Part shown: positions 8,960 to 36,091 of the stretch, piece by piece | Numbering within the stretch: the stretch's first letter is position 1 | Layout: the number at the start of each line of letters is the position of its first letter | DNA from: Dehalococcoidia bacterium | GTDB taxonomy: Bacteria > Chloroflexota > Dehalococcoidia > Dehalococcoidales > Fen-1064 | DNA: 64,000 nucleotides | Direction: 5' to 3' | Assembly: GCA_011171075.1 (NCBI GenBank) | Contig: DUFD01000025.1 | Span: 30,281-94,280 of the forward strand | Translations under genes and position numbers: made by a program | Notes under the pieces: generated by a model | Told to the model about the DNA's origin: nothing | The model's database searches: none | Seen by the model: the letters and a program-made list of their open reading frames with translations, nothing else

Positions 8960-8968
8960 AAAAAGCTC

Positions 8969-14354: not shown

Positions 14355-14358
14355 AGGT

Positions 14359-15144
14359 CTACTCCCATACTTTCCAGAATGCCTGATTGTTTTGCCACAG
14401 TCTGGTCAGATATTCTACATCCCGGTAGGTATCCATACACGCCCAAAGGCCGTCATGGACATAAACCATTAATTCACCTGCGGCGGTGAGTGCCTCTAGG
14501 GGCCCTCTTTCGAAGTCGCAATTATCGTCATCACTCAGATAGTCGAAAATTTTTCGATTGAAGACGAAGAAGCCACCGTTAATCAGTCCTGCGGAGGTCT
14601 GCGGCTTCTCGGAGAATTGCAGTGCCCGGTCCCCTTCCAGCACCAGTTCACCGAATAGAGAGGGCGGTCGGACGCCGGTAACCGTGCCTATTTTCCCGTG
14701 CTTATTGTGGAAAGCAAGCAGCTTCTGGATATTAACGTTGGCCACGCCATCGCCGTAGGTCAGCATGAACACGTCTTCCGTGATGTATTTTTGGATTCTT
14801 TTCAGGCGGGCGCCCTTGAGTGCCTTATCGCCGGTATCCGCCATGGTAACGCTCCAGTCATCGTGATTGCTGGTGTTATGCAGAATTGTTGCCTTCTTAT
14901 TACCCAGTTTGATTGTCAAGTCGCTGTTCAGGAATTCATAGTTCAGGAAATAGTCCTTAATGACCTCACCTTTGTATCCTAGACAGAGGACAAAGTCCGA
15001 ACAGCCGTAATGGTTGTAGATTTTCATGATGTGCCAAAGGATGGGTTTGCTACCTATCTCTACCATCGGTTTGGGTTTGAACTCGGTCTCCTCTCTGAGC
15101 CTGGTACCCAGACCGCCGCAGAAAATTACTACCTTCGGATTCAC
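14359..15144 (-). CDS. rfbF: Glucose-1-phosphate cytidylyltransferase
   Basis: The signature [38 protein letters not shown] is characteristic of RfbF. Confidence 0.85.
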
Positions 15145-15169
15145 TTATATGTCCTCCCTCATGCTGGAG

Positions 15170-16291
15170 TCAGCTACTCAAACCATTAATTACACCACTA
15201 ATCACCTGCGACACGTCCTCGTCGGTCAGCCCGCAGTGCAGTGGAAGGGTCAGTATCTCCTGGTAGGCCTGTTCTGTCTGGGGCAGGTCCCTCTGGGGCT
15301 GACGGTAAAATGCGTGCAGGTGGTTCGGTATATAGTTAATCCCGGTCTCGATGTCACGCTCCTTGAGATAATCGACCAGATAGTCGCGCCGTCCGTCCTT
15401 TACCCGGATGACATAGATGTGGGGTGCGACGGAATCGTAATCGATATTAAGGCACTGAATCAGCGGGTGGCATCGAAACGATTCATTATAGCGGCGGCAA
15501 ATCTCTTTTCTCCGGGCGATAAAGCGGTCGAGCTTGGCCAGTTGCGCCAGGCCGATGGCGGCGTTTATATTGCTCATGTGGTAGCGGTATCCCTGTGTCC
15601 TCACCTCGTAAAACGAGGCACGGTCTTTCCACAGGCCCGTCTGCGACGGGCGGTCCATGCCCAGCAGCCTCTTCTGCCGGACCAAATTGTCCAGTTTACC
15701 GTCACCGGTGACCACCGCTCCGCCTTCCCCGCATGTGATATTCTTGATGGAGTCGAAGCTGAAACAGGCGATGTCACCGAAGCTGCCAATCATTTTCCCG
15801 TGGTAGAGTGAGCCCAGTGCATGAGCGGCATCTTCGATTATCCTTATCTTGTCTTCGGCAGCAATATCCAGCAGCGCCTCCATATCGCAGGGATTGCTGG
15901 CGTAATGGACCGGCATAATAGCTCTGGTTCTGGGGGTGATACAGCGTTTGACGTCATCAATATCGGTCAGCAGGGTATCGGGATAGACGTCGCAGGGGAC
16001 GGGGGTAGCGCCGGTGGCCGATACCGCCTGAAATGAGCCGACGAAGGTTAGCGAGGGGACAATGACCTCATCGCCCCTGCCTATTCCGGCGGCGTCCATT
16101 GCCAGGTGCAGTGCCGCCGTACCGTTGCTGGTGGCGATTACATATTTTGCCCCCAGGTATTTCTTAAGTGCCTCTTCGAATTCATCTACCTTGGTTGCCA
16201 GACCGAAGTAGCCATAGTCAAAGGCCTCTTTTACCTGTGCCAGTTCCTCTTCCCCGAGGCATGCTCTTGATACCTTAATCATCTCTGTCAC
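15170..16291 (-). CDS. DegT-family PLP aminotransferase (likely acts on the CDP-4-keto-6-deoxyhexose)
   Basis: SNGTAALHLA...SFDSIKNITCGEGGAV contains the PLP lysine. It lies directly downstream of rfbF/rfbG context. Confidence 0.75.
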   Translation of the reverse strand: MTEMIKVSRACLGEEELAQVKEAFDYGYFGLATKVDEFEEALKKYLGAKYVIATSNGTAALHLAMDAAGIGRGDEVIVPSLTFVGSFQAVSATGATPVPCDVYPDTLLTDIDDVKRCITPRTRAIMPVHYASNPCDMEALLDIAAEDKIRIIEDAAHALGSLYHGKMIGSFGDIACFSFDSIKNITCGEGGAVVTGDGKLDNLVRQKRLLGMDRPSQTGLWKDRASFYEVRTQGYRYHMSNINAAIGLAQLAKLDRFIARRKEICRRYNESFRCHPLIQCLNIDYDSVAPHIYVIRVKDGRRDYLVDYLKERDIETGINYIPNHLHAFYRQPQRDLPQTEQAYQEILTLPLHCGLTDEDVSQVISGVINGLSS

Positions 16292-16297
16292 CTGAAA

Positions 16298-17179
16298 TTA
16301 CTTGGTGGTCATAGCCAGGATATAGCGCCCGCAATCCGCATAAGTCTCGGCCAACTGCGTTTCGAGGTCGGACAACTCCGACTGCTGTTTTTCACTCAGT
16401 AAAGAGGGTCGTGCGATTGTCTCCAGCGGGTCGCCCTCGATACCTGAAAAGATACCGATACCCCGGCACATGGTGTTTCTGTAGCCGAGCCTGCTCAGCA
16501 GTTCGACTACTTCATTGGTGGTTTGCCAGGAAAATGTTACTGCTCCCCCGAATACCTTGCCTGTCTGTTGCGTGGCGGCTAACCTGGCCCCGGCAAAATT
16601 ACGTTCCCTTATTGTGTGCAGCAGGTTGAAATACTTGGAGCGGAAGCTTATGAAGGCCAGGCCATCTGATTTCATGATTCGGTGAACGTGCTGCAGAGCT
16701 TTGTCGTATTGGGGTAGCATCAGTACGACTTCAGTAAAAACAACGCAGTCGTAACTCTCTGAAGGGGTCTTTTCCAGGAAATGTGGTGCGTCATCAACGA
16801 GAAATTCTGCGTTTGGCACTCCTTTTTCTTCGGAATATCTTCGGGCTGTCTCAATAGCTTCTTTCGTGAAATCCACGCCGATAACCCGGCCGTTCCGGTT
16901 CCATGCGGCCAGGGGTATCGTTAAACGCCCCTGACCACAACCCAGGTCGAGAATGTTAATCCCTCTATCCGGGAACTGCTCATCGAGTTTTGATAGAATC
17001 CAGTGCAGGTACTGGCCTGCGTAGTACGGTTCATCGGGAGAAGTGACCATATCATGTATGTTAGCTGTACGTTGGATATTCCTTTTGGCCAGGTCCTTCT
17101 CACCGTACCTGATGATGCCGCATAGGTGTATTAGACGGCTGATAACCTTTCCTACTAAAGGCCTGAGCAGTTTCTTCAT
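16298..17179 (-). CDS. Class I SAM-dependent methyltransferase
   Basis: Motif I ILDLGCGQGRLT and YDCVVFTEVVLMLP. Confidence 0.8.
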   Translation of the reverse strand: MKKLLRPLVGKVISRLIHLCGIIRYGEKDLAKRNIQRTANIHDMVTSPDEPYYAGQYLHWILSKLDEQFPDRGINILDLGCGQGRLTIPLAAWNRNGRVIGVDFTKEAIETARRYSEEKGVPNAEFLVDDAPHFLEKTPSESYDCVVFTEVVLMLPQYDKALQHVHRIMKSDGLAFISFRSKYFNLLHTIRERNFAGARLAATQQTGKVFGGAVTFSWQTTNEVVELLSRLGYRNTMCRGIGIFSGIEGDPLETIARPSLLSEKQQSELSDLETQLAETYADCGRYILAMTTK

Positions 17180-17226
17180 TGATTTACATCAACCTCAATC
17201 ATGCGGCACGAAAAAAGCGCCAGAAT

Positions 17227-19338
17227 TTATAATTCTATCCTTTGTGCAAGTAACTCATTCAGCATCGTTTCTCCCCACATCGGGTATGTTCGTGGTTCAC
17301 GGTAGTATGGATATGCCTTGGTATTTTGCTCCATGACACTGAGTGGCCCGATAAGCTCCAATAGCTGGGCTGGTAACCCTGAAAGCCTTTGATACAGAGC
17401 TAACCACCTCCCGATGTAATTTTCGAGATTACTTCTGGCTATTGTGCCCAGCAAGCTATCGCTTGTTTTCATGTTGGTGTAGCTCAGTATAATCGGGTTA
17501 AATATCAGGTTGGCCAGGTCAAAGAAGGGAAGCCCTTCGCTTTCAAAATGCTCGAAGTCTACTATGCTAACCCTGTCGCCGCTAAAGAGCAGGTTGCACA
17601 AATCGTAGTCTCCGTGTACAGCACAGACGGGTATCCGCAGTCCGTCGAGCTTTTCTATTGCCTGCACCAGGTCTCCGATGCGTGAGTCTACCTCTTCAGT
17701 CAAGCGTTCCTGTTCGTTTAATGTTTCTCTCTGTGATTCGATGACCGACAACAGGTGAGGGGTGGCTTCGACTTCGCTCACCTGCGTATATCGCTGGAAC
17801 GTCGCCAGGAACCTGATTGCTGACTGAATAGAGCTGTCAAGTTTTCTTAGATTTTTGGTAGTGAAGCCGGTGTTCAGGTTAAATTTGGAAGGAGCGCCTT
17901 CGAGATACTGTGTGACCAGAATGCTGATATTATCGATGTTGCCAGAATATAAGAGTCGGGGGATACATGCACTAAGCTCGGTATCCATCAGCAGTCGGTT
18001 GACGGTCTTCAGGTTTTTAGCCTCGTTCTCCAGGATGTCGGCATACCTGTTGTTCCGACAGACCTTGCAGAAGCAAGCGGGTCTGGTATCATTGTTTTCG
18101 TAGATTAGAAAGTTGGCGGCGTGGTAACTACCGGCGCGCCCGCCAGACTTGACCACTTTAATGTCTGACGGTGCTGAGCCGTCCAGCAGGCCAGCTTTTC
18201 TCAGCACCTGGACTATTCTGGCCTCCTTTGGCTCGTCTCCACCGGGAGCCTTGGCCATGATGATGAAGCTTGGCGAGCTGTATTTGAGCAGTCCTGCCGG
18301 GAACATCTTGACGGCCAGCTTCTGGTACCAGCGCGCATTGTGGACTGGTATGGCCACCTCCTTCCAGTGTCTTATCAGGTCGGCGGGGATTATCATTGAC
18401 GGCTGTATGTAGTGAGAGAAAGCGCCGTAGTACTCCATATCTGTGAACCCGCCGTCCCGCAACAACGAACGGTAGCCCCTTGAGGAATAGGTATAAGTCC
18501 GGTACTCGCAGTTCAGCTTCCATCTGGTGATGGTGTTGGCCAGAAATCTTGGCAGGAAGGACACGTACATGATGTTCATGTGTTCGTCAGGCACTCCTGC
18601 CAGATATGGGTAACCGATGCTATTCTCGATTGCCAGATATAGGTGGCCGCCCCGCTTTAGCACCCTCTGAATTTCACGCAACACCTCTACCTGCACCTGG
18701 CGCGGGTCCTTCGAATACACCGCCGAGTCCTGCCGTCTTTTGCCCCAGTGAATCTCCAGCACCACGTCTTGGTCAAAGGCAACCCACTCCAGGACACCGC
18801 TTAGAACAACCAGGTCAAAATAGCCATCGGGAAAGGGGAGCCGTTGTACCGGTGAGGCCACGATATGCACATTCCTGAAGCCCATCTGTTTGGCGCGTAT
18901 CTTCAGGAAAGCCAGCGTTTCTATTGTTTTATCGACGGCAAAGACTTCGCCGCAATGTTGCGCGGCCGGTATGGCGAGACCGCCCCACATGCTTCCAGCA
19001 TCCAGAACACGGGATTCACCATTGACAGGCCATAGATATTGAGCATCGGCGCGGTCGAACGGCTCTATATGCTCAACGTACTGTGGAATCAGCTCACGGG
19101 CGGCCTTGAGCCAGTCGCCGCTTTCTCTGGCTCTGTTATTCAGTTCTTGCATCGTTTCCCGGCGGACATTACACCAGTACTCGTCTTTCTGGCCAAAACT
19201 GGGGATGCCGTCCACTACCGGGTATTCTTTCCTGCAGGAGCGACAGGTAAGAGCCCTTTCATGCGAGGATAGCTCACCATGACAGAAGGGACATATCAGG
19301 TCAGCAAAACTCAAATCTTCGATTGTCTCCAGCTTCAT
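17227..19338 (-). CDS. Tri-domain protein: Cys4 zinc ribbon + methyltransferase-like domain + APH/choline-kinase-like phosphotransferase domain (WbdD-like architecture)
   Basis: CPFC...CRSC ribbon. MT core LDAGSMWGG...FDLVVLSGVLEWV. Kinase catalytic loop VHGDYDLCNLLF followed by IVDFEHF. The start is taken at ATG 19338; the ORF-track TTG start is at 19374. Confidence 0.75.
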   Translation of the reverse strand: MKLETIEDLSFADLICPFCHGELSSHERALTCRSCRKEYPVVDGIPSFGQKDEYWCNVRRETMQELNNRARESGDWLKAARELIPQYVEHIEPFDRADAQYLWPVNGESRVLDAGSMWGGLAIPAAQHCGEVFAVDKTIETLAFLKIRAKQMGFRNVHIVASPVQRLPFPDGYFDLVVLSGVLEWVAFDQDVVLEIHWGKRRQDSAVYSKDPRQVQVEVLREIQRVLKRGGHLYLAIENSIGYPYLAGVPDEHMNIMYVSFLPRFLANTITRWKLNCEYRTYTYSSRGYRSLLRDGGFTDMEYYGAFSHYIQPSMIIPADLIRHWKEVAIPVHNARWYQKLAVKMFPAGLLKYSSPSFIIMAKAPGGDEPKEARIVQVLRKAGLLDGSAPSDIKVVKSGGRAGSYHAANFLIYENNDTRPACFCKVCRNNRYADILENEAKNLKTVNRLLMDTELSACIPRLLYSGNIDNISILVTQYLEGAPSKFNLNTGFTTKNLRKLDSSIQSAIRFLATFQRYTQVSEVEATPHLLSVIESQRETLNEQERLTEEVDSRIGDLVQAIEKLDGLRIPVCAVHGDYDLCNLLFSGDRVSIVDFEHFESEGLPFFDLANLIFNPIILSYTNMKTSDSLLGTIARSNLENYIGRWLALYQRLSGLPAQLLELIGPLSVMEQNTKAYPYYREPRTYPMWGETMLNELLAQRIEL

Positions 19339-19387
19339 AGCAGAACCCCATGCAACAATATCGTGACCACGCAACTCACCTCATATA

Positions 19388-20929
19388 TCAGGCCCTTTTC
19401 ATCTGCATAATTATTCCGCGCATCTCTCCCGCCAGTATTTTCATATCGCGGAACGATAAATAGTCCCGGTAAAACAACCCGATTACGAAGCCCCATACGA
19501 CAACCTGGGCTGCTAATGATATCCCGGTGAAGGTCCAAACGTTAGAAATCGCTGAGTCGAGGTAGCTGTGGATGAAGTAGAATGGGACTGTTATTGCGAA
19601 AGGTACCAGGATTCTAGTGACAAACCTGACGAACTCATTAGTATCCGTGAAAATGTAACTCCTGATAAAACGATACAACAGGAGTGTCACCAGGCCTTGC
19701 GTGCAGATAGTTACCCAGGCAACGCCGACCACGCCGTACCCGAGGTTGATTACGAGAATATTGAAGGCTATATTTAATGCCAGGCCGATTGAGTAAAGCA
19801 GTAAGAAGACGCTCTGCTTATTTATTATGCTCGAGGTCAGGATAACTGCCGGAATTATAGAGGCGGAAGCAAGATACAGATTGTACGAGAGTACGTGAAA
19901 TATGGGTATGCTGCTGGCATATTGGGTAGTTATCAGGCTGGCTATCAGATAAAAAACAACTTGTGAAACAGGGACAAGGATAGCGGTACCAAGGGTTATA
20001 TAGATGGCTATTCGTTTCAGGTCTTTAAAGCCTTCGTAGATGCTCTCAGCCTTTCCCGCTTCCTTCCATAAGACCGGTTGAAGTACGTTGCCAAACTCGA
20101 CGGGGATGTTGAACACCAGCATGATAAATCCCATAGCATATACGTAAAATCCCAGCTGGTCGAGGGGGAGTGTTGAGGCTATAATTGTTCTATCCGCCAG
20201 TCGAAATCCCCAGTATACCAGCGTCCCTGCCTGAAGGACGACGCCAAATTTCACCAGCCTGTGGGTTTCTTTCCAGTCCAGTCGGAAACGGAATTCGATT
20301 GGCCCTTTTCGCCAGTAATAAATACCCATAGCTATGGCCGCTCCTATCGGTGCAATTAACAATGCATAGACCTTCAGCCAGTGTATGCAGGCCAACGTTA
20401 GCAGCGGTATCGCGATGCCGGCGATGAGCCTCCCCTTGGCGGCTACATTGAAGTTCTGCCTCAGGAAGTTTACGCCCGCCCAGTAATTTACAAAACGGTT
20501 GGTGATAAAGCTGACTGCCACGATAATCAGGCCGAATTTCAGGAGTGGTTCTGAGTAAAAGAAGGAGACCCCGAGGAGGACAGCAAACGGCAATATTGAA
20601 TACAGTATGTCTGAAGTAATGGAGATATTCTGTATTCTCAGCGCTTCTTTTTCCTCACCCTTTCCTAGGAGTACCGGCACTTCTCTGAAGCCAGCGCTGG
20701 TAAGCCCCAGACCCACAAAACCGGCATACATCAGCCACAACCCCAGGAAACCATACGTCCCGTATTCCTCCGGCGCCAGTATGGTCGCCACGTATATGGT
20801 TACCAGCATTGACATAAGTGCATAAACAATCTGCACCGAACTGAATTTCAGAGAGTTTTTAGCTATATTTATGATGCTTATTGCCATTTGACTATCAGAA
20901 TCCTGCCCAAGGTTGTTTAAGTCATACAA
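19388..20929 (-). CDS. wzx: Wzx-type polysaccharide flippase (MOP/PST superfamily)
   Basis: 513 aa with about 12-14 hydrophobic helices seen by eye. The position within the glycan operon supports the call. Confidence 0.7.
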   Translation of the reverse strand: MYDLNNLGQDSDSQMAISIINIAKNSLKFSSVQIVYALMSMLVTIYVATILAPEEYGTYGFLGLWLMYAGFVGLGLTSAGFREVPVLLGKGEEKEALRIQNISITSDILYSILPFAVLLGVSFFYSEPLLKFGLIIVAVSFITNRFVNYWAGVNFLRQNFNVAAKGRLIAGIAIPLLTLACIHWLKVYALLIAPIGAAIAMGIYYWRKGPIEFRFRLDWKETHRLVKFGVVLQAGTLVYWGFRLADRTIIASTLPLDQLGFYVYAMGFIMLVFNIPVEFGNVLQPVLWKEAGKAESIYEGFKDLKRIAIYITLGTAILVPVSQVVFYLIASLITTQYASSIPIFHVLSYNLYLASASIIPAVILTSSIINKQSVFLLLYSIGLALNIAFNILVINLGYGVVGVAWVTICTQGLVTLLLYRFIRSYIFTDTNEFVRFVTRILVPFAITVPFYFIHSYLDSAISNVWTFTGISLAAQVVVWGFVIGLFYRDYLSFRDMKILAGEMRGIIMQMKRA

Positions 20930-20950
20930 TTCGATTTGGTCACTTATCTG

Positions 20951-21997
20951 CTACAGCTTACCGGCAATTACTCTAATACATGTTCCTTCGCTTCCATATT
21001 GAAAATCATCTGATGATAGGAACTTAAATACATTCTGAGTAGAGAAGAGTTTCCCATATAATTTTTTGAGATACTCCTTCGGAGGTGATTCCGGAAACAG
21101 GTTTGAAGTAATTCTAGATATCCTGTTTAGCCTGCCGTCAGCAGGTTCTTGTTTCCCTCCATTGCGAGTGCTCTTAATATATTCTTCCCACCATTCGGAG
21201 TGTTTTTGGCTGCAGCAGCCCATGAATCTTAGATTGAGTCCGGATTTCTCCAGCGCAGTCCTGAGGCTCGTTTCGTTGAAGAAGGAAAGGTGGGGAGCGT
21301 CATTATACCGCATGTTTCGGCGAGTGATCAGGTCAGAGTTTGGCACCTCACATAAGAATATCCCGTCATCAGTAAGAAGAGTCTGAATGTACTGCAAAAC
21401 AGGAATAATCTCATCACCGTTGTAGTGCTCTAGGAGATGCGACATCAGGATGAAATCAAACCTTTGCGAACCGAAAACCGGGCCTGAATACCGGTCAAAA
21501 TATATAGGGTACAGTTGTACGCCAAGAGACTTCAGAGTTGGATGGGAGAATTGGTCGGGTTCAACCGCAAAAAGGCGCATCTTTGGCAGGAGTTTCCGGG
21601 CAATCCAAAATGATATGCCTCTTCCGCAACCGATATCTAATAGGGTATCGTTTTCTTTAAATTCCTTAAAGGATTTTGCCAGTAAGATTTGTGAAATAGG
21701 TCTCGGTTCGAGCGAAAAATCGCTGTAATTGCTTACTGTGTTTCTGACGTGGTAGGCAGAGTGGGTGTCTCTATAGACATCTGAGTAAAATTTATCCAGC
21801 CTTGTTTTATCAATAGATGGAAGTGCCCAGCCAAAACCGCATCTTTTGCAAACGTGTATTTTAAGGTCCGAAAAGATGTCCTGGGCCACCTCGTTAGTAG
21901 CGAACTCATAATTCATATATTCGATGGAAAAGCTTACATCCTTTTCAGATGAGCAAATCGGGCAAAAGGAATTCTCATTACCCATAAGAATTAGCAT
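20951..21997 (-). CDS. SAM-dependent methyltransferase with N-terminal Cys4 zinc ribbon
   Basis: CPICSS...CKRCGF ribbon, motif I LLDIGCGRGISF and FDFILMSHLLEH. Confidence 0.8.
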   Translation of the reverse strand: MLILMGNENSFCPICSSEKDVSFSIEYMNYEFATNEVAQDIFSDLKIHVCKRCGFGWALPSIDKTRLDKFYSDVYRDTHSAYHVRNTVSNYSDFSLEPRPISQILLAKSFKEFKENDTLLDIGCGRGISFWIARKLLPKMRLFAVEPDQFSHPTLKSLGVQLYPIYFDRYSGPVFGSQRFDFILMSHLLEHYNGDEIIPVLQYIQTLLTDDGIFLCEVPNSDLITRRNMRYNDAPHLSFFNETSLRTALEKSGLNLRFMGCCSQKHSEWWEEYIKSTRNGGKQEPADGRLNRISRITSNLFPESPPKEYLKKLYGKLFSTQNVFKFLSSDDFQYGSEGTCIRVIAGKL

Positions 21998-22034: not shown

Positions 22035-24047
22035 TCAGCGTTTGTCATTTATCATTTTAAGAATAATGTCGGCAATGTTCTGTGTGGCCCTGCCATCAAT
22101 CGGTCCGGCGCAGCGGCTGACGAATTCCCTCCGGCTTTCAGTTAATTTAGTTCGCTGCGAGTCGTTCGCTAAGACCTCTAGAATTACTGGAACAAGCTCC
22201 TCTTTTCTTTCTACCTTGAAAGCCGCCCCCTCCTGGGCATAGGGGACTACTTCGGGTCTGCCGGTGGGGTTGTAGATCACGACGTCTTTATTGAAAATCA
22301 TGGCTTCCAGAGCACTGGATGAACTGTGGGTCAGTAAAATGTCCGCTGCTGGGAGTTGGTGAATCAGAGGGATGTCCGAATACAGGATATTGCCCTGTCG
22401 TGCATCTCGAACAACCTGCCTGATATCCTCGGGATGTCTATCGCCGGGATGGGGACGGACGATGAGATAAAGTTGAGGAAGAGCGGCTACCCCCTCGATT
22501 ACGTCCTTCAGGTGTTGTATTATCTCGTCTCTAGTCTGCACTATGTAAGGGTGCCGGGTCTCCCGATTGCTGTGGTCCAGAGCGTATAAGATGACTTTCT
22601 TATCCGGCGGAATCCCCAGGTGGCGGCGTATGGAACCGTTGGAATGGTCGGCTACGCTCCGGTAATCATCAAAATCACTACAGGAAGCGACCTCCACCCT
22701 ATCCAGGGGTGTTCCCCAGATGGTAAACCAATCCTTCGAGGCATCGCCCCAGGCCTCTATCTTGTCGGCGACTGGAGGTACCAGCACCTTCCCGAAAGCC
22801 TCCGAGGCTTCAGGAGTGAAATAATCAACGCCGTGATGGAGTACCAGGGTTTTCTTGCCCCGGTTTTGAAGTGTTCTCATCATGGTACGTACTACCGGGT
22901 CTGCATCTGAAGGTGAGACAAGGACGTCAAGTCCTGTTCTGGTAATCATCTCTTTGATGAGCTCCATGCCGCGGACAACCAGGGGCAGGTATATATCGAG
23001 AATATACTCCAGTTCCTTTCTGGCAACTGCCCAGAAATTAAAACCGTTGTAGCAGAATGTATTTTCCAGATAGCTCACCACCTTGGCCTGGTTTATAATG
23101 TCACGGAAAACGGCTCTTTTCGCCTCGATGAGACGGTTAATCTCTGTGGTGCTGAAGGATTCCAAATATAGCTGTGGTAGGAAGCTCATCATGCGTCGCT
23201 TTTCACCTGGTCCTGCTAGGCAGACTAGACCGTTGTCGGCATCTTTTTTTAAATAGTCGGCGATATTTACCGCGCAGCGTAGCTCCGTAAAGGCTATTTT
23301 GCGTTTTTTCCGGGAAAACCTTCTTGCGGGACGGTGGGCGGTCCACGAGCAAAAACAGAAATTCCGTAATCGCTGCAGGTCACGCCGAATCTCCCGTGGT
23401 AAATTGCCGGAGAAAAATGTCCCTTTATAATTTGCCAATGTCTTTGTGGCAAAATTCAGCACCCGTCGCCGGAGTGGTGCGGAAAGGGCGACCTTTCCCG
23501 TCAGGTATTTTCGGCTCAAGTGTATTGGGTGAGTCCACTCTAGAGAGACGCCCTTTTCGCGAGATAGAGAGCTGACGATGAAGCTGTCCTGTCGTCCCAT
23601 ACAGGTAATGCTGATTGTCTCTGCCTCGGACGCCGGTCTTTTCGTAATAACAACCTTGTCAGGCCTTTCCGTCTCAAAGATACCCTTGTATAGCTCAACA
23701 TCCAGGAAGAACCCGGCAAAAGCCAACCTCAGATAGTATTCCATCGTCTCGCAGAGTGAAACCCCTTCGTGATTGAGGGCCTTTTCAAGCACTGGTTGTC
23801 TGTACCACTCTTTGGCTAGTCTGGTAGACTCGGTATAAGCCCGGTAATGCCTTTCTCTGGTGAGGTAGTCGATGGTGGTCTTGAAAGGTATACCTTGTTG
23901 CTGGCAGGCCCTCTGAGCACTGTATTCGGTGGCAATCACCACCGCCTGACAGTCCGGTCTCTGGTCATAGTCCCGGATTTTGTCCAGTTGAGACAGTACC
24001 TCCGTGTCTGCTGAACAGATAAATGCAATTTTCTTCGTTGCTGCCAT
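22035..24047 (-). CDS. Hypothetical 670-aa protein; the C-terminal half resembles a GT-B/TagF-like transferase domain
   Basis: Long ORF in operon context. C-terminal pattern KKVILYALDH...LIVRPHPGD...ADILLTHSSSSALEAMIFNKDVVIYN. No confident family call could be made. Confidence 0.5.
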   Translation of the reverse strand: MAATKKIAFICSADTEVLSQLDKIRDYDQRPDCQAVVIATEYSAQRACQQQGIPFKTTIDYLTRERHYRAYTESTRLAKEWYRQPVLEKALNHEGVSLCETMEYYLRLAFAGFFLDVELYKGIFETERPDKVVITKRPASEAETISITCMGRQDSFIVSSLSREKGVSLEWTHPIHLSRKYLTGKVALSAPLRRRVLNFATKTLANYKGTFFSGNLPREIRRDLQRLRNFCFCSWTAHRPARRFSRKKRKIAFTELRCAVNIADYLKKDADNGLVCLAGPGEKRRMMSFLPQLYLESFSTTEINRLIEAKRAVFRDIINQAKVVSYLENTFCYNGFNFWAVARKELEYILDIYLPLVVRGMELIKEMITRTGLDVLVSPSDADPVVRTMMRTLQNRGKKTLVLHHGVDYFTPEASEAFGKVLVPPVADKIEAWGDASKDWFTIWGTPLDRVEVASCSDFDDYRSVADHSNGSIRRHLGIPPDKKVILYALDHSNRETRHPYIVQTRDEIIQHLKDVIEGVAALPQLYLIVRPHPGDRHPEDIRQVVRDARQGNILYSDIPLIHQLPAADILLTHSSSSALEAMIFNKDVVIYNPTGRPEVVPYAQEGAAFKVERKEELVPVILEVLANDSQRTKLTESRREFVSRCAGPIDGRATQNIADIILKMINDKR

Positions 24048-24084: not shown

Positions 24085-25032
24085 TTAAGTGGCTTTCTTG
24101 CCTAGAAAAACGGTAATATCTCCAAGATTATGGCTATTAAGAAGCGCCTTGTATTCTTTATCTACCTTCTTAATCCATTTATTGAATATGGCTCTTGTTT
24201 CATCGGGCACCTGGGGAGACCTGACCAAAACGGGGGCAGACATACCGTCGCTGGCACTGCTTTGTGGTTCTCCGGTCAGTATCCAGTTTATCTGGTTGAT
24301 GAAATTGTATTGCTGAAGTGTCTTTGTCTCCCCAATAAAACCGCTTTTCTCGACGACACCTCTCAGTGTTTCAGGCGAAAAATAGAAAAGGTGCGGCTCA
24401 CGATAGTAGAAGTCGGCGTATTCCTTCACTTCGTAAACGGTGAGCAATGAATCATCTATGTTGTCAACCTCGATATAGATATACCCCCCGGGTCTAATAT
24501 ACTTACGTACCGCCCCAAGATAATTAATCGGGTCTTCGATGTGTTCGAGTACATCGAGCATAAATACTATGTCGAAGTATTCCAGGGGTACGTCCGTCTT
24601 TTCCAGGGGGCGGTTATAGACTTTTACCCCACATTTCTTTCTGGCAAACTCGACGTCATCTTTATTTAGCTCGATACCGACGCACTCCTGAACCAGATCT
24701 TTCAGAGCGTATAGAAAGTAGCCTGAAGAGCAGCCAATGTCCAGGGCTTTCATGTCAGGGTTAAGATAGGGTCTAATATCTTCTATGCGGGACTTCTGAA
24801 AAGGAAGATATATCTCAAAACGTTCGGCCGGCGAGACTTCCTGGTTGATTACCGGACTGTAAAGTTTTCTGTAGTCCTTTTCGTAGTATTCTCTGAGATT
24901 TCTTTCTTTATTCTCTAGGAAGACAAGCCCGCATTCTGCGCACTTGAGAACATTGCGTTTGATGCCGTGTCTTAGCTTGGTCTGGATTATCTTCAGGTTA
25001 GACCTGCCGCATAAATAGCAAGTGTTTTCCAT
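24085..25032 (-). CDS. SAM-dependent methyltransferase with N-terminal Cys4 zinc ribbon
   Basis: CYLCGR...CAECGL ribbon, motif I ALDIGCSSGYF and FDIVFMLDVLEH. Confidence 0.8.
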   Translation of the reverse strand: MENTCYLCGRSNLKIIQTKLRHGIKRNVLKCAECGLVFLENKERNLREYYEKDYRKLYSPVINQEVSPAERFEIYLPFQKSRIEDIRPYLNPDMKALDIGCSSGYFLYALKDLVQECVGIELNKDDVEFARKKCGVKVYNRPLEKTDVPLEYFDIVFMLDVLEHIEDPINYLGAVRKYIRPGGYIYIEVDNIDDSLLTVYEVKEYADFYYREPHLFYFSPETLRGVVEKSGFIGETKTLQQYNFINQINWILTGEPQSSASDGMSAPVLVRSPQVPDETRAIFNKWIKKVDKEYKALLNSHNLGDITVFLGKKAT

Positions 25033-25131: not shown

Positions 25132-25791
25132 TTACTGTGTCTCCTTCTCCGCCCAGCTCAGCAGCATTACCTCTTTAGAGAATTTTATTAATTTGATATC
25201 TGACTTTGGGAAACAGGACAGCACTCTGGAAAAGATGCTTAACCACGGATATTTCCATAGAAGCGGCAGTTGTCTGAATTTCTTCACCTCCACCTTGGTA
25301 AAGCCAAATATATGATGAATATCGCGTAGTGATTCTTTGGTGAAGGGTGTCTTATGTGTATAGTCTTCGTAGAAAGTCCTGTAGACTGATTCCCAATCTG
25401 GCGTCATCGTAATCAAACGCCCTCCGGGTCTAAGAACGCGGTATACCTCTGTCATAAGGTTTTCAGGATTGTTCAAATGCTCAATCAATGATTTACTAAA
25501 CACGATGTCGAAGCTGCTGTCTTCGTAAGGTAGCCTTTCTTGATCAATATCTATAACGTCAACCTCTATATCTATTGATAGCTCCCTGGCTTCTTTTGAC
25601 AAATCAATTCCTCTAACCTGATACCCCAGCTTCTGAAATTCACGTAGGTGCTCCCCCCGCCCACACCCTATATCCAGTACTGTCTTATAACCACCACTAA
25701 AATAGTTATCGGCAATGTATTTACATAGTTTACCTGGATAAGAGGTATAGGGCCTTTGCTTTTCAGAATAGACTACGCGTAAATATCCCAC
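25132..25791 (-). CDS. Class I SAM-dependent methyltransferase
   Basis: Motif I VLDIGCGRGEH, FDIVFSKSLIEH and LRPGGRL. Confidence 0.85.
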   Translation of the reverse strand: MGYLRVVYSEKQRPYTSYPGKLCKYIADNYFSGGYKTVLDIGCGRGEHLREFQKLGYQVRGIDLSKEARELSIDIEVDVIDIDQERLPYEDSSFDIVFSKSLIEHLNNPENLMTEVYRVLRPGGRLITMTPDWESVYRTFYEDYTHKTPFTKESLRDIHHIFGFTKVEVKKFRQLPLLWKYPWLSIFSRVLSCFPKSDIKLIKFSKEVMLLSWAEKETQ

Positions 25792-26292: not shown

Positions 26293-27664
26293 CAATAGCT
26301 TCCTGCAAAACGGCCACACCCTCGATGACAGCCTCCTCGGGAATGCTTAGTGGCGGCCCAATCTTAAGCGTGCCGCGACCGGTACGGACCATCAGCAGAC
26401 CTTTCTGCATGGCCTTCTCCAGGACTCTGTCCGCAAGCTCTATATCCAACTCATCTGTCACCGGGTTCGCCAAGTGTACTGCGTAAAGAAGCCCTCTACC
26501 CAGTATGCAGTGTATTCGGTCTGGGTAACGCTGTTTAATATTCATCAGATGCGATTCTAGAATGCCTCCGGTTCTATTGGCTGCGGCTACCAGATTTTCC
26601 TTTTCGATTGCTTCGAGGTTGGCCAGGGCAGCCGCACAGCAGAGGGGATTTCCGCTGTGAGTGCTGCTCAGGTCAGGAGGGATGTCCAGTATTTCTGACC
26701 GGCCAAGCACTGCCGAAAGTGGCAGGCTTGAGGAAATGCCCTTACCACAGCAGACAAGGTCGGCCTCCACGCCATAGTGCTCGAAGCAGAATGGTTTGCC
26801 CGTCCGACCAAACCCCGCCTGGACCTCGTCAAATGTGACCAGAGCAAAGTGCGCATCAGCCCAGGCACGAAGCGCCCTGATATAGTCGTCCGGATAGAAT
26901 ATGGCGCCCCAGGCAAGATACGATTCAACCATGAACCCGGCTATCCGGTTGAGTTCGAGGCCTTGATTACGGAGTTGCTCCAGGCCTCTCTGAAAGCACC
27001 ACTCCCCGCACTCTTTATAGCGTTCTCTACCCCAGGGACACCTCTGGCAAAAAGGAGCAGTAAGCTGGTATATATCGGGGTCGAGATGGACAATCCACTC
27101 TTTGGCGGTTGGGTTTCCGCTCATTGTCTGCGCCCCGATGGTTCGTCCGTGAAACGAACCGTCGAAGGAGACGATGACAGTCTTGTCGGGGTCGAGCCGC
27201 CGTCCATACATACGGGTCAACTTCAACGCGCATTCGGTGGCTTCACTCCCTGTCGAGAGAAGAAAGGCTTTTTCCAGTGGTGGAGGGCTGCTTTCAACCA
27301 GCTTCCGGGCCAACCGGGCGCGAATCTCCGATGCGAAAGTGTAGTTATGGAGGAGCCGGTGGTTTATCTGTTCCGCCAGGGCGTGGCGAATCAGATGGTG
27401 CGCGTGCCCGGCATTGGCGACGAAAATGCCCGAGGTGAAATCTATCCAGCAGTTACCGTAGGCGTCAAACACCTGATGTCCCTCGGCCCGGTCCCATACC
27501 ACGGGCAGCTCGTGGTGCAGTGACTCCGGTTCGTAGCGTTCCAGTTCTTTCAGAGTCGGTATTGAACCCGGGGCTGGAAGTGGGGTTACGATTCGCCGGT
27601 GGCGCGTTTCCACCCGCGGTACACCCACTGGCTCAAGACTGAACGTATATTTTGTCATTTTCAA
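26276..27664 (-). CDS. Class-III (ornithine/GABA-type) PLP aminotransferase
   Basis: DFTSGIFVANAGHAH, SGSEATECALK and FDEVQAGFGRTG are hallmark class-III motifs. Confidence 0.8.
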   Translation of the reverse strand: MKMTKYTFSLEPVGVPRVETRHRRIVTPLPAPGSIPTLKELERYEPESLHHELPVVWDRAEGHQVFDAYGNCWIDFTSGIFVANAGHAHHLIRHALAEQINHRLLHNYTFASEIRARLARKLVESSPPPLEKAFLLSTGSEATECALKLTRMYGRRLDPDKTVIVSFDGSFHGRTIGAQTMSGNPTAKEWIVHLDPDIYQLTAPFCQRCPWGRERYKECGEWCFQRGLEQLRNQGLELNRIAGFMVESYLAWGAIFYPDDYIRALRAWADAHFALVTFDEVQAGFGRTGKPFCFEHYGVEADLVCCGKGISSSLPLSAVLGRSEILDIPPDLSSTHSGNPLCCAAALANLEAIEKENLVAAANRTGGILESHLMNIKQRYPDRIHCILGRGLLYAVHLANPVTDELDIELADRVLEKAMQKGLLMVRTGRGTLKIGPPLSIPEEAVIEGVAVLQEAIDECLD

Positions 27665-28403
27665 TATCTCTCGCCGGAAAATTGCATTTTAGATATTCAT
27701 ATACCGGGTTCTTCTGTTTGCTCAGGGTATATTCGATGAAATCGAAGTCTTCAGGGCGGTCCAGTTCCCCGACATCCGGTGTAATAAAGGAGAGTATTCT
27801 CGGGCCGTGTAAAGTCCCCAGATTCGTTACGGTCTGGCTCTTTACAATGTCCACGTACCCATTGGGATGATAGACCGGCGGGAAGGCCTGCCGGGGCAGA
27901 TTATAGTATTCGGGTCTCGGGTCGTCGGGAAACAGCCCCACGTAATAGTCGTTTTCGATACCAAAGAGTTTGTAGGGGGACTCTGCGGTCTCACAGGCAG
28001 AGCGGAGGGATGTTGCCTCCTCGTTCCGCATTATCTTGTCAATCGCCTCATCAATGAGGGCTGGGTCTCGTAACGGTGTCGGTGGTGAGAGGATAACGAG
28101 GTATTCCGGTTGGGCCCCTTCGTGAGTCTGGAACCAGCCGAGAGCGTGCTTGACATATTCTATGTCGAGTGAGCTATCTCGTGAGATTTCGGTGGGGCGG
28201 AGGAAAGGGACTTCTGCCCCATAGGTAAGGGCTATTTCGGCAAATTCCTGAGAATCGGTCGAGACTATCGTCCTTTCGATTCTCGAGGACAGTCTTGAAG
28301 CGATTATTGAGTAGGCAATCAGCGGATAGCCCGCTAAGGGTTTGATATTCTTCGCGGGGACCCCTCTACTGCCACTCCTTGCCGGTATCAGGCTAATAAT
28401 CAT
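27633..28403 (-). CDS. Acylneuraminate/ulosonate cytidylyltransferase (NeuA/CMP-sugar synthetase family)
   Basis: The N-terminal signature IISLIPARSGSRGVPAKNIKPLAGYPLIAYSI is typical of CMP-NeuAc/CMP-Kdo-type synthetases. Confidence 0.8.
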   Translation of the reverse strand: MIISLIPARSGSRGVPAKNIKPLAGYPLIAYSIIASRLSSRIERTIVSTDSQEFAEIALTYGAEVPFLRPTEISRDSSLDIEYVKHALGWFQTHEGAQPEYLVILSPPTPLRDPALIDEAIDKIMRNEEATSLRSACETAESPYKLFGIENDYYVGLFPDDPRPEYYNLPRQAFPPVYHPNGYVDIVKSQTVTNLGTLHGPRILSFITPDVGELDRPEDFDFIEYTLSKQKNPVYEYLKCNFPARDIENDKIYVQS

Positions 28404-28467
28404 TGCTCAGCCCTCCAAGAACCTTGAAGACCCGGTAGCTCATCTGGTTTAATATAGTCCGTCCTCG

Positions 28468-29304
28468 CTACCAACCTGTAGGCACCCCCCAGAACTCACA
28501 AGACTGGCACAGGCGCACTTTATTTCTCTGCCCCTGGATGTGGTGTTGCAAGTATGATTTCCTTAATTCGCCATTCCAGATATCTTCCAGAGGTGTGGTG
28601 TTGGCATCACCGATAATTCCATATTTGTGGGGGTCAAATCTGACGCACATGGCAACGCTGCCGTCTCTCTTGATAACCATGTGGCTCAGAAGGTCAAGGC
28701 ATATTCCCAGTTCAGGTACCGTGGGGGATTTCTTGTAGGCAAAGCTACCCATCGGTGAGTGTAATATTCTGGTAGCAATGATGCATCCCAACTCCTTGTA
28801 CCTGACCAGGTCCACGTCGCCGAGGCACCTGATGATTACGTTCGGCCTGCGGTTACGTTTATATGCCAGGAACTCCTTTAGCAGGCTGTATTGCTCGTCG
28901 GCTTCGGGGTCAGCCTCGAAGGTGGATATGGTTATCGTGTCCAGATTGTCTATAATCTCATCGGCTTTTGCTATTAGCAATTTACCGTTCGTGTCCACGC
29001 ACTTAATCTGCCGGTCGAATAACTTCACGGCTTCGCCAAATCGGGGGTAGAGCAAAGGTTCTCCATTATCGTGAAATTGAACGACCATATCCGGGGGTAA
29101 CTGCCTGGCTATTGATTCCACCAAACCCCAGTCCATATCGCCCCAATTGGCTAGTTCAGGGTAGTCCCTCTCTATTTTGCGTCGGCCGCACATCCAGCAG
29201 TTCTTGTTGCACCGACTGGTCAATTCTATATTGACCACTCCCAGGCCATTGAACCCCATTTGTTTCTCCAGTTTTCTATCGGTATCAGGGCAGTAGACTG
29301 TCAT
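28468..29304 (-). CDS. Radical SAM enzyme (possible SPASM-like C-terminal Cys cluster)
   Basis: CX3CX2C motif in ELTSRCNKNCWMCGRR. Further Cys residues near the C-terminus (AMCVRF...LCQSCEFWG). Confidence 0.75.
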   Translation of the reverse strand: MTVYCPDTDRKLEKQMGFNGLGVVNIELTSRCNKNCWMCGRRKIERDYPELANWGDMDWGLVESIARQLPPDMVVQFHDNGEPLLYPRFGEAVKLFDRQIKCVDTNGKLLIAKADEIIDNLDTITISTFEADPEADEQYSLLKEFLAYKRNRRPNVIIRCLGDVDLVRYKELGCIIATRILHSPMGSFAYKKSPTVPELGICLDLLSHMVIKRDGSVAMCVRFDPHKYGIIGDANTTPLEDIWNGELRKSYLQHHIQGQRNKVRLCQSCEFWGVPTGW

Positions 29305-29309
29305 TTTAT

Positions 29310-30176
29310 TCAGGCTGTTGCGTACTCTCTGAAGTATCTTAATTTGGCGGCATTAGCCTCTTCTTCCGCGGTGACTCTCTTGATACCATCGCCGAGTAGC
29401 TTCGGGAGACTCTTGGCGTTATCTACCAGCAGACTGAGTCCTCTGGCTTCGAGGGAGGCCGCCTGGTCACTACCGTACATTGCCCTGTCGAGCGTTATGT
29501 GCCGCTCGATAGCTACTGCGCCCAGCGCGGCGGCTACAATAGATGGCATGGGGCTTACCTCATGCCCGCTGTAACCGACATCACATTTGTAGCGCTCTCT
29601 CAGGGCCTGGATGCATAACAGGTTGAGGTCCTCCTCCCTGGCGGGATACGTCCCCTGACAGTGCATCAGGGTAAAGGGGCACTCATGCTCCCTGAAGATA
29701 TCTACCGCTTTATCAACGTCGTCGTAGGTGCTCATGCCGGTTGATATGAATGTATGCTTGCGCTCCTCGGCAACAACGTTCAGCAGGGGGATATTCGTCA
29801 GCATTGGTGAGGCTATCTTGTTGTATTTGCAGTTGTACTGTCTGATAAACATCTGGCTTTCTACATCCCATGATGAGGCAAACCAGTCGATTCCACGCTG
29901 TCGGCAATGTTCGTCAATGATATCGTATTCCTCTTTGCCGAATTCTAAAGCCTCTTTCTGCGCCCTCTGGGTTGTTCCCCACGGGCTCTCCCTCGGGGAG
30001 TCCAGTAGCTCTTCTGAATAAACAATGTCTACCGTCCTTTTCTGAAACTTGACGGCATCACACCCGCAGTCCTTGGCCATGTCAATAAGCTTTCTAGCTA
30101 TATTGACCACCCCGTTGTGATTGATGCCTATCTCCGCGATGATAAAAGGAATATTGTTTTTGTCCACTACGTCCAC
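29310..30176 (-). CDS. NeuB-family PEP-condensing ulosonate synthase, short form without SAF domain
   Basis: FIIAEIGINHNG...DAVKFQ...GYSGH...ERHITLD matches the NeuB TIM barrel. It is 288 aa, against about 345 aa for NeuB/PseI/LegI. Confidence 0.8.
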   Translation of the reverse strand: MDVVDKNNIPFIIAEIGINHNGVVNIARKLIDMAKDCGCDAVKFQKRTVDIVYSEELLDSPRESPWGTTQRAQKEALEFGKEEYDIIDEHCRQRGIDWFASSWDVESQMFIRQYNCKYNKIASPMLTNIPLLNVVAEERKHTFISTGMSTYDDVDKAVDIFREHECPFTLMHCQGTYPAREEDLNLLCIQALRERYKCDVGYSGHEVSPMPSIVAAALGAVAIERHITLDRAMYGSDQAASLEARGLSLLVDNAKSLPKLLGDGIKRVTAEEEANAAKLRYFREYATA

Positions 30177-30192
30177 ACCCCTTTCCCGGATT

Positions 30193-30831
30193 TTAGTATT
30201 GTTCCGACGGCACGCTGCACTTGCCGAATAGTTCTTTCTCCACCAGATAGCAGATAATGTGGCCCATCATGATGTGCGATTCCTGGATTCGAGGCACCTC
30301 GGTTGAGGGGACAGCCAGTAGATAGTCGACATTTTCTGCCAGTTTCCCGCCTGTAGCTCCGGTAAAAGCTACGGTTATCCCGCCCTGTCGTCTGGCTTCT
30401 TCAATACCTCGAATTACATTTTGCGAGTCGCCACTGGTGCTGATGCCGATGACGACATCACCGGGCTTGACCGATGCCTCGACCTGACGGGCAAAGACCT
30501 CGCTGAAATCATAATCATTGGCAATCGCCGTTAATTCGGACGTATTGGTGGTCAGGGCCAGCGATTCCAGAGCCTTTCTTCTGAGATAAAACTTACTGAC
30601 CAGCTCACAGGACAGGTGTTGGGCATCAGCGGCACTCCCTCCGTTGCCGAACCAGAGAACCTTGTTGCCCTTTCGGTAAACACGAATTATCTCCTCCGCA
30701 ATTTGCGCCATGGTTTTCGGGCAGGTTTCTATTAACTGCTTCTTTACAGAGATACAGTCTTCAATATGTTGCAGTATGTCCTCTTCCATCGAGGTCTGGT
30801 TTATTACCCGTTTCATGCCATCTGGGCTCAT
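30193..30831 (-). CDS. SIS-domain sugar-phosphate isomerase (GmhA/PtmF-like)
   Basis: GNGGSAADAQHLSCELV...ISTSGDS...ESHIMMGH matches the GmhA-type SIS fold. The start is uncertain (30831, 30816 or 30789). Confidence 0.75.
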   Translation of the reverse strand: MSPDGMKRVINQTSMEEDILQHIEDCISVKKQLIETCPKTMAQIAEEIIRVYRKGNKVLWFGNGGSAADAQHLSCELVSKFYLRRKALESLALTTNTSELTAIANDYDFSEVFARQVEASVKPGDVVIGISTSGDSQNVIRGIEEARRQGGITVAFTGATGGKLAENVDYLLAVPSTEVPRIQESHIMMGHIICYLVEKELFGKCSVPSEQY

Positions 30832-35654: not shown

Positions 35655-35657
35655 CCT

Positions 35658-36083: not shown

Positions 36084-36091
36084 CAGTTGAG

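Follow-up and report, generated by a model that had tools for sequence, protein, structure and literature searches.

Which enzyme attaches the acidic sugar to the cell-surface glycan of a Dehalococcoidia bacterium whose genome carries a locus for making such a sugar? The locus lies in a stretch of 64,000 nucleotides (contig DUFD01000025.1 of assembly GCA_011171075.1, positions 30,281 to 94,280), here called the window, and it includes genes for a cytidine monophosphate (CMP)-activated ulosonic acid. Judged by its sequence and predicted structure, the best candidate for the attaching enzyme is the 670-residue product of a gene at 22035-24047, here called the target. It belongs to a large uncharacterised TagF/SpsB-like family that adjoins genes for the synthesis of sialic-acid-like sugars. 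We consider that it is probably a peripheral-membrane transferase of the TagF/SpsB/BFO_1060 type, with the GT-B glycosyltransferase (GT) fold, which would add the CMP-activated ulosonic acid to a lipid-linked oligosaccharide. The same role had been suggested by an earlier reading of the DNA letters alone (the sequence-only reading). That suggestion is largely supported by the fold and by the genomic linkage described below, while transferase activity itself is a prediction only.

The gene, its family and its fold

The open reading frame (ORF) is confirmed. It runs on the minus strand from an ATG start, with a Shine-Dalgarno-like GAGG about 6 nt 5' of it, through 670 codons and a stop. It is a real, constrained gene, because NCBI holds an identical protein (hypothetical protein G4O18_04595, from a Dehalococcoidia metagenome-assembled genome) and because eight homologs, from Chloroflexota or metagenome contigs, are conserved from the first residue to the last at 49-81% identity. 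The distance to the neighbouring gene is 37 nt on both sides. As the sequence-only reading had it, both neighbours (24085-25032 and 20951-21997) encode S-adenosylmethionine (SAM) methyltransferases with N-terminal CxxC...CxxC ribbons.

The protein is not the orphan that it was taken for. Pfam Glyphos_transf (PF04464, TagF-like) matches residues 470-664 with 41.3 bits against a gathering threshold of 22.1, over profile positions 179-367 of 367, which is only the C-terminal half of the model. A profile of the nine close sequences was searched against 1.84 billion cluster representatives and found 5,077 at E ≤ 1e-3 and 182 at E ≤ 1e-30. The best 150 matches are mostly 600-690 residues long and match in two stretches, and members include Thermoplasmatota archaea and Rokubacteria. 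Repeat searches with alignments A1 and A2 gave no further sequences, and a search for related loci in GTDB genomes with A1 gave one short Dehalococcoidaceae contig. For the conservation, hidden Markov model (HMM) and modelling work, the wider family was sampled as 61 full-length members. All 61 match NCBIfam BFO_1060 (NF046086; best E 3.7e-38), 59 match TIGR04396, 'surface carbohydrate biosynthesis protein', and 51 match Glyphos_transf. There are weak matches to Capsule_synth in 44, the target itself having none at E ≤ 0.01.

A search of PDB with the target sequence alone gave no match, and a profile was needed. The family profile finds the TagF-like capsule polymerase Cps3D as the best PDB sequence (E 2e-14), then a diacylglycerol glucosyltransferase, WecB-type epimerases (1e-8) and TarL (9e-7); KpsC (6mgb) follows at 1.9e-5 over about 105 residues. 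AlphaFold (AF2), run with the 61-sequence alignment, gave a model with a predicted local distance difference test score (pLDDT) of 89.9 and a predicted template modelling score (pTM) of 0.88. A model from the nine-sequence alignment was poor (pLDDT 57) and was discarded. All 50 of the Foldseek matches listed from PDB are GT-B proteins, among them TagF (3l7k, 3l7j and 3l7i; E about 1e-9, target TM score 0.57-0.59). The fold is therefore a GT-B fold of transferase type, and the TagF-like character that had been read into the C-terminal part is found alike by Glyphos_transf, the PDB profile matches and Foldseek.

The domain plan consists of three domains and one linker (Table 1). The N-terminal 400 or so residues had been described as unassigned and basic-rich. 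The basic stretch is there (RRFSRKKRK, residues 241-249), but the region can be assigned: it resolves into an extra half-domain (domain A), a basic linker, and the N-terminal Rossmann domain of the GT-B core (domain B, 249-468). Domain C, the C-terminal Rossmann domain, holds the stretches LIVRPHPGD (residues 528-536) and LTHSSSSALEAMIFNKDVVIYN (residues 572-593).

Domain A resembles domain B. The long helical insert of the first is also present in the second in the AF2 model, and in the wider-family alignment hhalign matches residues 54-178 to 291-409 with a probability of 99% (E 4.5e-18). As a control against an artefact of misalignment, reciprocal HMM searches were run on the unaligned proteins. 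An HMM of domain B only detects a second, N-terminal copy in 55 of the 61 full-length proteins, target included, and the reciprocal search of domain A against B finds the copy in 57. The duplication is not visible in the close subfamily alone (hhalign probability 0.3%, blastp not significant). By these comparisons, domain A is an old copy of one part of domain B. It is probably non-catalytic, because the histidine equivalent to His405 (see below) is not conserved in domain A within the subfamily.

The linker has a pI of 11.95, with 19 Lys or Arg against 2 Asp or Glu, and the highest hydrophobic moments in the protein. It is predicted as helices of low pLDDT, and a net charge of at least +5 is kept in 49 of the 61 members despite poor sequence conservation. 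No transmembrane segment is predicted anywhere in the 670 residues. TarL has an N-terminal domain, a 35-residue amphipathic helix α4, and a GT-B domain with H300 and H433 (PMC10901376); by analogy with helix α4, we propose that the linker is a membrane-association element. It is the N-terminal 250 residues that set this family apart, the core itself being SpsB/BFO_1060-like. No description of a duplicated half-domain and polybasic linker before the core was found in the literature consulted on TagF/SpsB/BFO_1060, sialyltransferase or retaining ulosonate families.

Across the 61 members, the core carries the motifs Q/H-H405-G, A-D-K-x-A-x-W-G434, K/R531-x-H533-P534, S576-T-x-x-L-E581-A and D-G-x-A-x-x-R. 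G434 is found in all 61 and the Lys or Arg preceding the HP pair in 60, followed by D460 (58), G406 (57), P534 (56), H533 (53) and H405 (50). H405 is invariant in the close subfamily, and the target reads HHG where the family has QHG. The spacing between H405 and H533 is 128 residues, compared to 133 in TarL and 140 in TagF. By columns counted in the profile alignment, H533 lies within about one residue of TarL H433; hhalign places it on WecB H213 and places H405 beside WecB E117. H405 is proposed as the counterpart of TagF H444 and TarL H300. R-P-H-P at residues 531-534 is the HP motif, as in the nonulosonic acid (NulO) transferases of Tannerella forsythia.

One motif differs between the wider family and the subfamily. 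In all nine close homologs, (A/T)-S-C-(S/A)-D-F-D stands in place of T-G-x-P-x-F-D (T in 57, G in 57 and P in 52 of the 61), and Cys456 is invariant (SCSDFD in the target; residues 454-460, 22668-22688). The change on the acceptor side may mean that acceptor or donor geometry is not the same in the subfamily.

Linkage to ulosonate synthesis

The sequence-only reading placed the gene downstream of a CMP-ulosonate module, and this is where it is. On the same minus strand, the genes upstream of the target are, in order, a GmhA-like SIS isomerase, a NeuB synthase without a SAF domain, a radical SAM/SPASM protein, a PseF-like CMP-ulosonate synthetase (CTP_transf_3), a class III aminotransferase, a VOC protein and two methyltransferases. 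The CTP_transf_3 gene ends 3.6 kb upstream of the target. Because the enzymes of the module score below their equivalog cut-offs (Table 1), its sugar would appear to be none of the named nonulosonates. Downstream follow a methyltransferase, a Wzx flippase, a fusion of a methyltransferase and an APH kinase, a methyltransferase, a DegT aminotransferase and a glucose-1-phosphate cytidylyltransferase, and then a CDP-glucose-4,6-dehydratase-like protein, a cupin, a GT2, a second DegT and AsnB. GT4 genes and membrane proteins lie beyond this string, and an Opp transporter at 37266 marks the end of the locus. The remaining glycosyltransferases of the locus are GT2 and GT4 only, in line with the earlier statement that no other gene here is an obvious CMP-sugar transferase.

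The linkage is conserved. CTP_transf_3 lies within a few genes of the homolog in all seven closer-relative loci with enough DNA (L001, L002, L003, L004, L006, L011 and L013), and NeuB in most of them; L014 and L015 were too short to be scored for either. For the wider family, 79 metagenome loci were fetched with a 12-sequence alignment (A3) and their six-frame ORFs were searched with HMMs made from the genes at hand. Neighbours within 10 kb were counted in the 41 loci that have at least 8 kb of flank. NeuB is present in 28, CTP_transf_3 in 26, either in 30 and both in 24; when near-identical loci are collapsed, the counts are about 25 of 35 for NeuB and 23 of 35 for CTP_transf_3. No nucleotide-activating enzyme other than CTP_transf_3 is shared by these loci. 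A DegT aminotransferase is found in 28 of the 41, and SIS in only one. Genomes carry at most a few NeuB genes, and co-location within 10 kb by chance would have a frequency of the order of 1%. Given this strong linkage, the homologs therefore do not occur independently of nucleotide-sugar genes. As the fold is also of transferase type, both tests by which the sequence-only reading could have failed come out in its favour. A Wzx gene follows the homolog in L001, L003, L008 and L011. Directly upstream of the target gene, most subfamily loci carry an enzyme of about 312 residues (Methyltransf_23), in the position that a methyltransferase has in T. forsythia UB4.

The closest functional precedent comes from T. 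forsythia, which has the only validated relatives. Knock-outs of Tanf_01245 and TFUB4_00887 lose the terminal derivative of pseudaminic (Pse) or legionaminic (Leg) acid (PMC5420450). These genetically validated transferases belong to NF046086, which is the NCBIfam model that the target and all 61 members match best, and like the target they are TagB-like GT-B proteins with the HP motif. In strain UB4, a methyltransferase gene separates the transferase gene from the CMP-NulO genes that lie just before it (PMC5420450), and the target has the same arrangement. The T. forsythia enzymes are 442-445 residues long compared to 670, without the duplicated half-domain and basic linker, and the target differs from them in having no D/E-D/E-G motif anywhere in its sequence.

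Plasmids searched by tblastn gave only Bacillus-group genes annotated 'CDP-glycerol glycerophosphotransferase family / spore coat protein' (44 Bacillus records and one Peribacillus record). An example is the gene at 8476-9873 of locus L096, on the B. thuringiensis plasmid NZ_CP085410.1, one of the megaplasmids of the B. cereus group. Its 465-residue protein, of the COG TagB/SpsB family, consists of the core only. hhalign matches it to the family profile with a probability of 99.9% (E 4.5e-37) over the whole GT-B core, and it shares the QHG, K-x-H-P and S-T-x-x-L-E-A-M motifs. A gene of the NeuB family is found at a distance of 1.4 kb. The region as a whole (L096 8476-12284) places this SpsB-like gene beside an N-acetylneuraminate synthase family gene and short-chain dehydrogenase/reductase (SDR) genes, in a culturable system.

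On sequence and profile similarity, the nearest relatives are thus the Pse/Leg transferases of T. forsythia and the SpsB-like proteins, and not the sialyltransferase families. GT99 (WbbB), GT107 (KpsC/KpsS), GT118 (KpsS1, Pse) and GT140 (KrkA) are retaining, GT-B-like enzymes with CMP-ulosonate donors and an Asp nucleophile (PMC12887879). Their relation to the target family is weak, and the conserved catalytic candidate of the family is a His.

The proposed reaction and its alternatives

The donor, the acceptor, the roles of residues, the stereochemistry and whether one residue or many are added are matters that we infer. The donor would be the CMP-ulosonic acid made by NeuB and CTP_transf_3, which are encoded four to six genes upstream, and the acceptor a lipid-linked oligosaccharide built by the GT2 and GT4 enzymes of the locus. 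The C-terminal Rossmann domain would hold the cytidine nucleotide through R531-x-H533-P534, S576 and E581, and His405 of domain B would deprotonate the acceptor hydroxyl. The polybasic amphipathic linker (residues 179-248) may anchor the enzyme on the anionic inner face of the membrane, and the half-domain (residues 1-178) may serve in oligomerisation or acceptor binding, like the extra N-terminal domains of TagF-like polymerases. The presence of a Wzx flippase implies that assembly ends at the cytoplasmic face, with the unit still on its lipid carrier. A peripheral-membrane enzyme whose amphipathic element is cationic fits this picture; the ulosonic acid would be added before Wzx exports the unit.

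Several observations weigh against this reading. The BFO_1060 match of the target is confined to residues 425-666 and scores 67.1 bits, far below the cut-off of 200, and the TIGR04396 match (residues 492-669) is likewise far below its curated cut-off. UDP-N-acetylglucosamine (UDP-GlcNAc) 2-epimerases head the Foldseek list (6e-11, target TM score 0.65), slightly above TagF, and some members of the family are annotated as such epimerases. The 465-residue Bacillus protein, the closest annotated relative of the core, is taken as SpsB-like, and SpsB of B. subtilis, the nearest homolog that has been studied, which has a TagB-type domain and is encoded in the CMP-Leg operon, was not required for Leg on spores (PMC7439481). 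The authors of that study left redundancy or another substrate possible (PMC7439481), and no later literature that settles the function of SpsB was found. The same caution holds for the alternatives below. Eleven of the 41 wider-family loci have neither NeuB nor CTP_transf_3 within 10 kb, and the more distant L010 has neither within 8 kb. Finally, the glucose-1-phosphate cytidylyltransferase scores 349 bits, above its equivalog cut-off of 300, so that a CDP-hexose is made in the locus.

This last point leads to the first alternative, a TagF-type phosphotransferase. Such an enzyme would attack the β-phosphate of a CDP-activated alcohol or sugar, leave a phosphodiester-linked substituent and release CMP; its donor could be of the CDP-glycerol or CDP-ribitol type, a CDP-amino-alcohol or phosphonate, or the CDP-hexose of the locus. 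Glyphos_transf is the only curated model that the target passes, and the best solved relatives, Cps3D and TarL, are polyol-phosphate polymerases. The GT-B fold, the plan of an extra N-terminal domain followed by an amphipathic basic helix, and the presumed cytidine-nucleotide donor are as in TagF, TarL and Cps3D, and two conserved histidines are similarly spaced; the N-terminal domain, however, is a duplicated Rossmann half-domain and not Ig-like. The locus also has the cytidylyltransferase and the methyltransferase-APH kinase fusion, and phosphonate or CDP-alcohol genes occur in subfamily loci. However, the genes linked to the target are those for a CMP-ulosonate. No TagD-like (PF01467) or TarJ-type gene, nor any other clear gene for CDP-glycerol or CDP-ribitol, is listed for the loci of homologs or for the approximately 40 ORFs of the window that were scanned. 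One NTP_transferase of L001 has only a faint IspD match, and beyond it there are just CTP_transf_3 and a glucose-1-phosphate cytidylyltransferase. The phospho-alcohol module has a CDP-OH_P_transf of its own (L001, L002, L004 and L011) and is missing from the wider family, a GT2 accompanies the CDP-hexose module, the common neighbours are NeuB and CTP_transf_3, and the nearest validated relatives transfer nonulosonates. We therefore regard a phosphotransferase as unlikely. A narrower form, a phospho-alcohol reading by way of the methyltransferase-APH fusion and CDP-OH_P_transf, was down-ranked since these partners are subfamily-specific and bring their own transferase.

The second alternative is suggested by the Foldseek list. 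The target could be a hydrolysing 2-epimerase of a nucleoside diphosphate (NDP)-activated N-acetylhexosamine, or an NDP-sugar hydrolase, analogous to NeuC, LegG or PseG. It would then supply NeuB with its aldose, in a trio like neuCBA. WecB, NeuC and LegG (PF02350) share the GT-B superfold; hhalign to E. coli WecB has a probability of 97.9% over both core domains, Epimerase_2 matches 55 of the 61 members weakly, and no canonical Epimerase_2 gene is present in the window or listed for the subfamily loci L001-L011. The active site speaks otherwise. We take the catalytic carboxylates of E. coli WecB to be D95, E117 and E131. D95 aligns with D381 of the target, but E117 aligns with H404 (Q in the family) and E131 with P425 (hydrophobic in the family); two of the three have no counterpart, and this weakens the epimerase reading. 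The target scores 20.7 bits against an Epimerase_2 cut-off of 30.6, and phmmer with E. coli WecB does not reach it at E ≤ 1e-3. A separate canonical Epimerase_2 gene is present in 15 wider-family loci (intact, 377-430 residues, in 14, and split in L040), loci of the SIS-NeuB-CTP_transf_3 kind need no NDP-sugar hydrolysis, and an extra N-terminal domain and a polybasic, membrane-type linker are foreign to soluble epimerases. An epimerase or hydrolase thus seems rather improbable.

A third possibility keeps the chemistry of the transferase that we favour but has the enzyme add many ulosonates processively, as polysialyltransferases, KpsC and TagF-like polymerases do with their substrates. An extra N-terminal domain marks the polymerases among TagF-like enzymes (PMC10901376), and the target has one. 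On the other hand, the Wzx flippase and the several single-addition glycosyltransferases of the operon point to a repeat-unit pathway, no capsule- or teichoic-type ATP-binding cassette (ABC) transporter is present in the locus, and the T. forsythia enzymes add a single terminal residue. A processive polymerase is accordingly very unlikely. A sialyltransferase of GT38, GT52 or GT80, families that the sequence-only reading had proposed for comparison, was rejected, as the target has the HP motif without D/E-D/E-G and none of these families is named in the 44 PDB profile matches or the 50 Foldseek matches listed.

The surrounding locus and what the family may mean

The features of the target, of its locus and of the related loci are collected in Table 1.

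Table 1. Position and supporting evidence of the target, its parts and associated genes. Positions are those of the window unless a related locus is named.
Feature	Position	Strand	Evidence
Whole gene, predicted TagF/SpsB/BFO_1060-like GT-B enzyme (stop codon 22035-22037)	22035-24047	minus	ORF and translation, identical NCBI protein, homologs, Pfam
Domain A, residues 1-178: extra N-terminal Rossmann-like half-domain with long helical insert	23514-24047	minus	AF2 (pLDDT mostly >90), hhalign, HMMs
Polybasic amphipathic linker, residues 179-248 (holds RRFSRKKRK)	23304-23513	minus	composition, hydrophobic moment, low-pLDDT helices
Domain B, residues 249-468: N-terminal Rossmann of GT-B core, acceptor side	22644-23303	minus	AF2, motifs, hhalign to SpsB-like protein
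Domain C, residues 469-670: C-terminal Rossmann, nucleotide donor side	22038-22643	minus	Pfam, NCBIfam, PDB profile matches (Cps3D, TarL, KpsC), conservation
Codon of His405, putative general base (TagF H444 / TarL H300 position)	22833-22835	minus	conservation, WecB alignment, spacing
Codons of His533-Pro534, HP motif, putative phosphate contact of the cytidine nucleotide	22446-22451	minus	conservation, WecB and TarL alignment
Presumed donor-supply module	27633-30831	minus	Pfam, NCBIfam
SIS isomerase, GmhA-like	30193-30831	minus	193 bits (cut-off 276)
NeuB synthase, 288 residues, without SAF domain	29310-30176	minus	238 bits (cut-off 400)
Radical SAM/SPASM protein	28468-29304	minus	Pfam, NCBIfam
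PseF-like CMP-ulosonate synthetase, CTP_transf_3	27633-28403	minus	119 bits (cut-off 206)
Wzx-type flippase (Polysacc_synt_3), two genes downstream of the target	19388-20929	minus	Pfam
SAM-methyltransferase domains	769-1572, 2755-3459, 7961-8959, 16298-17179, 17227-19374, 20951-21997, 24085-25032, 25132-25791
Methyltransferase-APH fusion in relatives	L001 15895-18006, L002 13179-15305, L003 10108-12201, L011 12433-13215

The nature of the acid can be narrowed a little further. No dehydratase, acetyltransferase or epimerase gene adjoins the ulosonate module. In the relatives (compare L002, L004 and L014), SIS travels with a GHMP kinase and a HAD phosphatase, and in L002 also with an NTP transferase, which is a set of the GDP-heptose type. 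The acid could accordingly be something other than a standard nonulosonate, conceivably with a precursor derived from a heptose.

Methylation is a prominent feature of the locus: eight SAM-methyltransferase domains occur within about 25 kb, several with N-terminal zinc ribbons. One is part of the 715-residue fusion, in which a Trm112-like zinc ribbon and a SAM methyltransferase are joined to an APH/choline-kinase-like domain (17227-19374, minus strand). This fusion is found in none of the 79 wider-family loci and is kept only in the tight Dehalococcoidia subfamily. In the relatives it adjoins a CDP-alcohol phosphatidyltransferase, and in L001 it is also near a phosphoenolpyruvate (PEP)-mutase/phosphonopyruvate-decarboxylase module, which suggests that the same glycan carries a methylated phospho-alcohol or phosphonate. 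The phosphonate genes beside homologs consist of a PEP mutase fused to a nucleotidyltransferase-like region, a phosphonopyruvate decarboxylase and an iron-type alcohol dehydrogenase (Fe-ADH) (L001 8924-14286; L014 638-3399), and suggest that there are phosphonate-decorated glycans in some of these uncultured lineages.

The CDP-hexose module (12004-16291, minus strand) consists of the glucose-1-phosphate cytidylyltransferase, the CDP-glucose 4,6-dehydratase-like protein, an RmlC-like cupin, DegT and GT2. It is self-contained, and L002 has the same genes (16839-21286). With its listed TTG start (13414), the cupin ORF shares 95 nt with the dehydratase gene, and its true start is probably further downstream. 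On the plus strand, 33960-37234 encodes an FkbH-domain protein (275 bits, above cut-off), then a VOC/glyoxalase-like protein and then a 380-residue protein without a match in Pfam or NCBIfam. Since glyceryl units are loaded by FkbH enzymes, this set could supply an acyl substituent of the glyceroyl type for an amino sugar. Also on the plus strand of the glycan locus are a DUF2206 membrane protein of 717 residues (4603-6756) and a DUF1616 ORF of fragment size (150 residues, 33184-33636), which matches only the C-terminal half of its profile. Either could be a membrane enzyme of the polymerase or ligase type, or a remnant of one.

The chemistry that we propose for the target is an expected one, and it is the architecture that is unusual. 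Few transferases are known for sialic-acid-like sugars (pseudaminic, legionaminic and related acids), they are spread over unrelated families, and most loci for such glycans have no known transferase. It is conceivable, though we would not call it likely, that the target represents a large unrecognised glycosyltransferase family, with thousands of clusters in uncultured bacteria and archaea and a plan of '1.5 x GT-B' (duplicated half-domain, polybasic membrane linker, SpsB/BFO_1060-type core), and that this family is the general enzyme, missing for so long in these lineages, which transfers or possibly polymerises nonulosonic and related acids. Its Dehalococcoidia subfamily, with SCSDFD for TGxPxFD, would then install a new, heavily methylated ulosonic acid derived from the GmhA-like isomerase and the SAF-less NeuB.

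There is a practical matter of annotation here, as members of the family now carry inconsistent labels (hypothetical, glycosyltransferase, CDP-glycerol glycerophosphotransferase and even 'ribosomal protein L22'). If the proposed function is true, thousands of loci in uncultured bacteria and archaea would gain a candidate transferase, the TagF-like superfamily a new domain plan, and glyco-engineers new enzymes acting on unusual ulosonates. For the organism itself, a monoderm member of the Chloroflexota, it would point to a surface glycan that is acidic and methylated.

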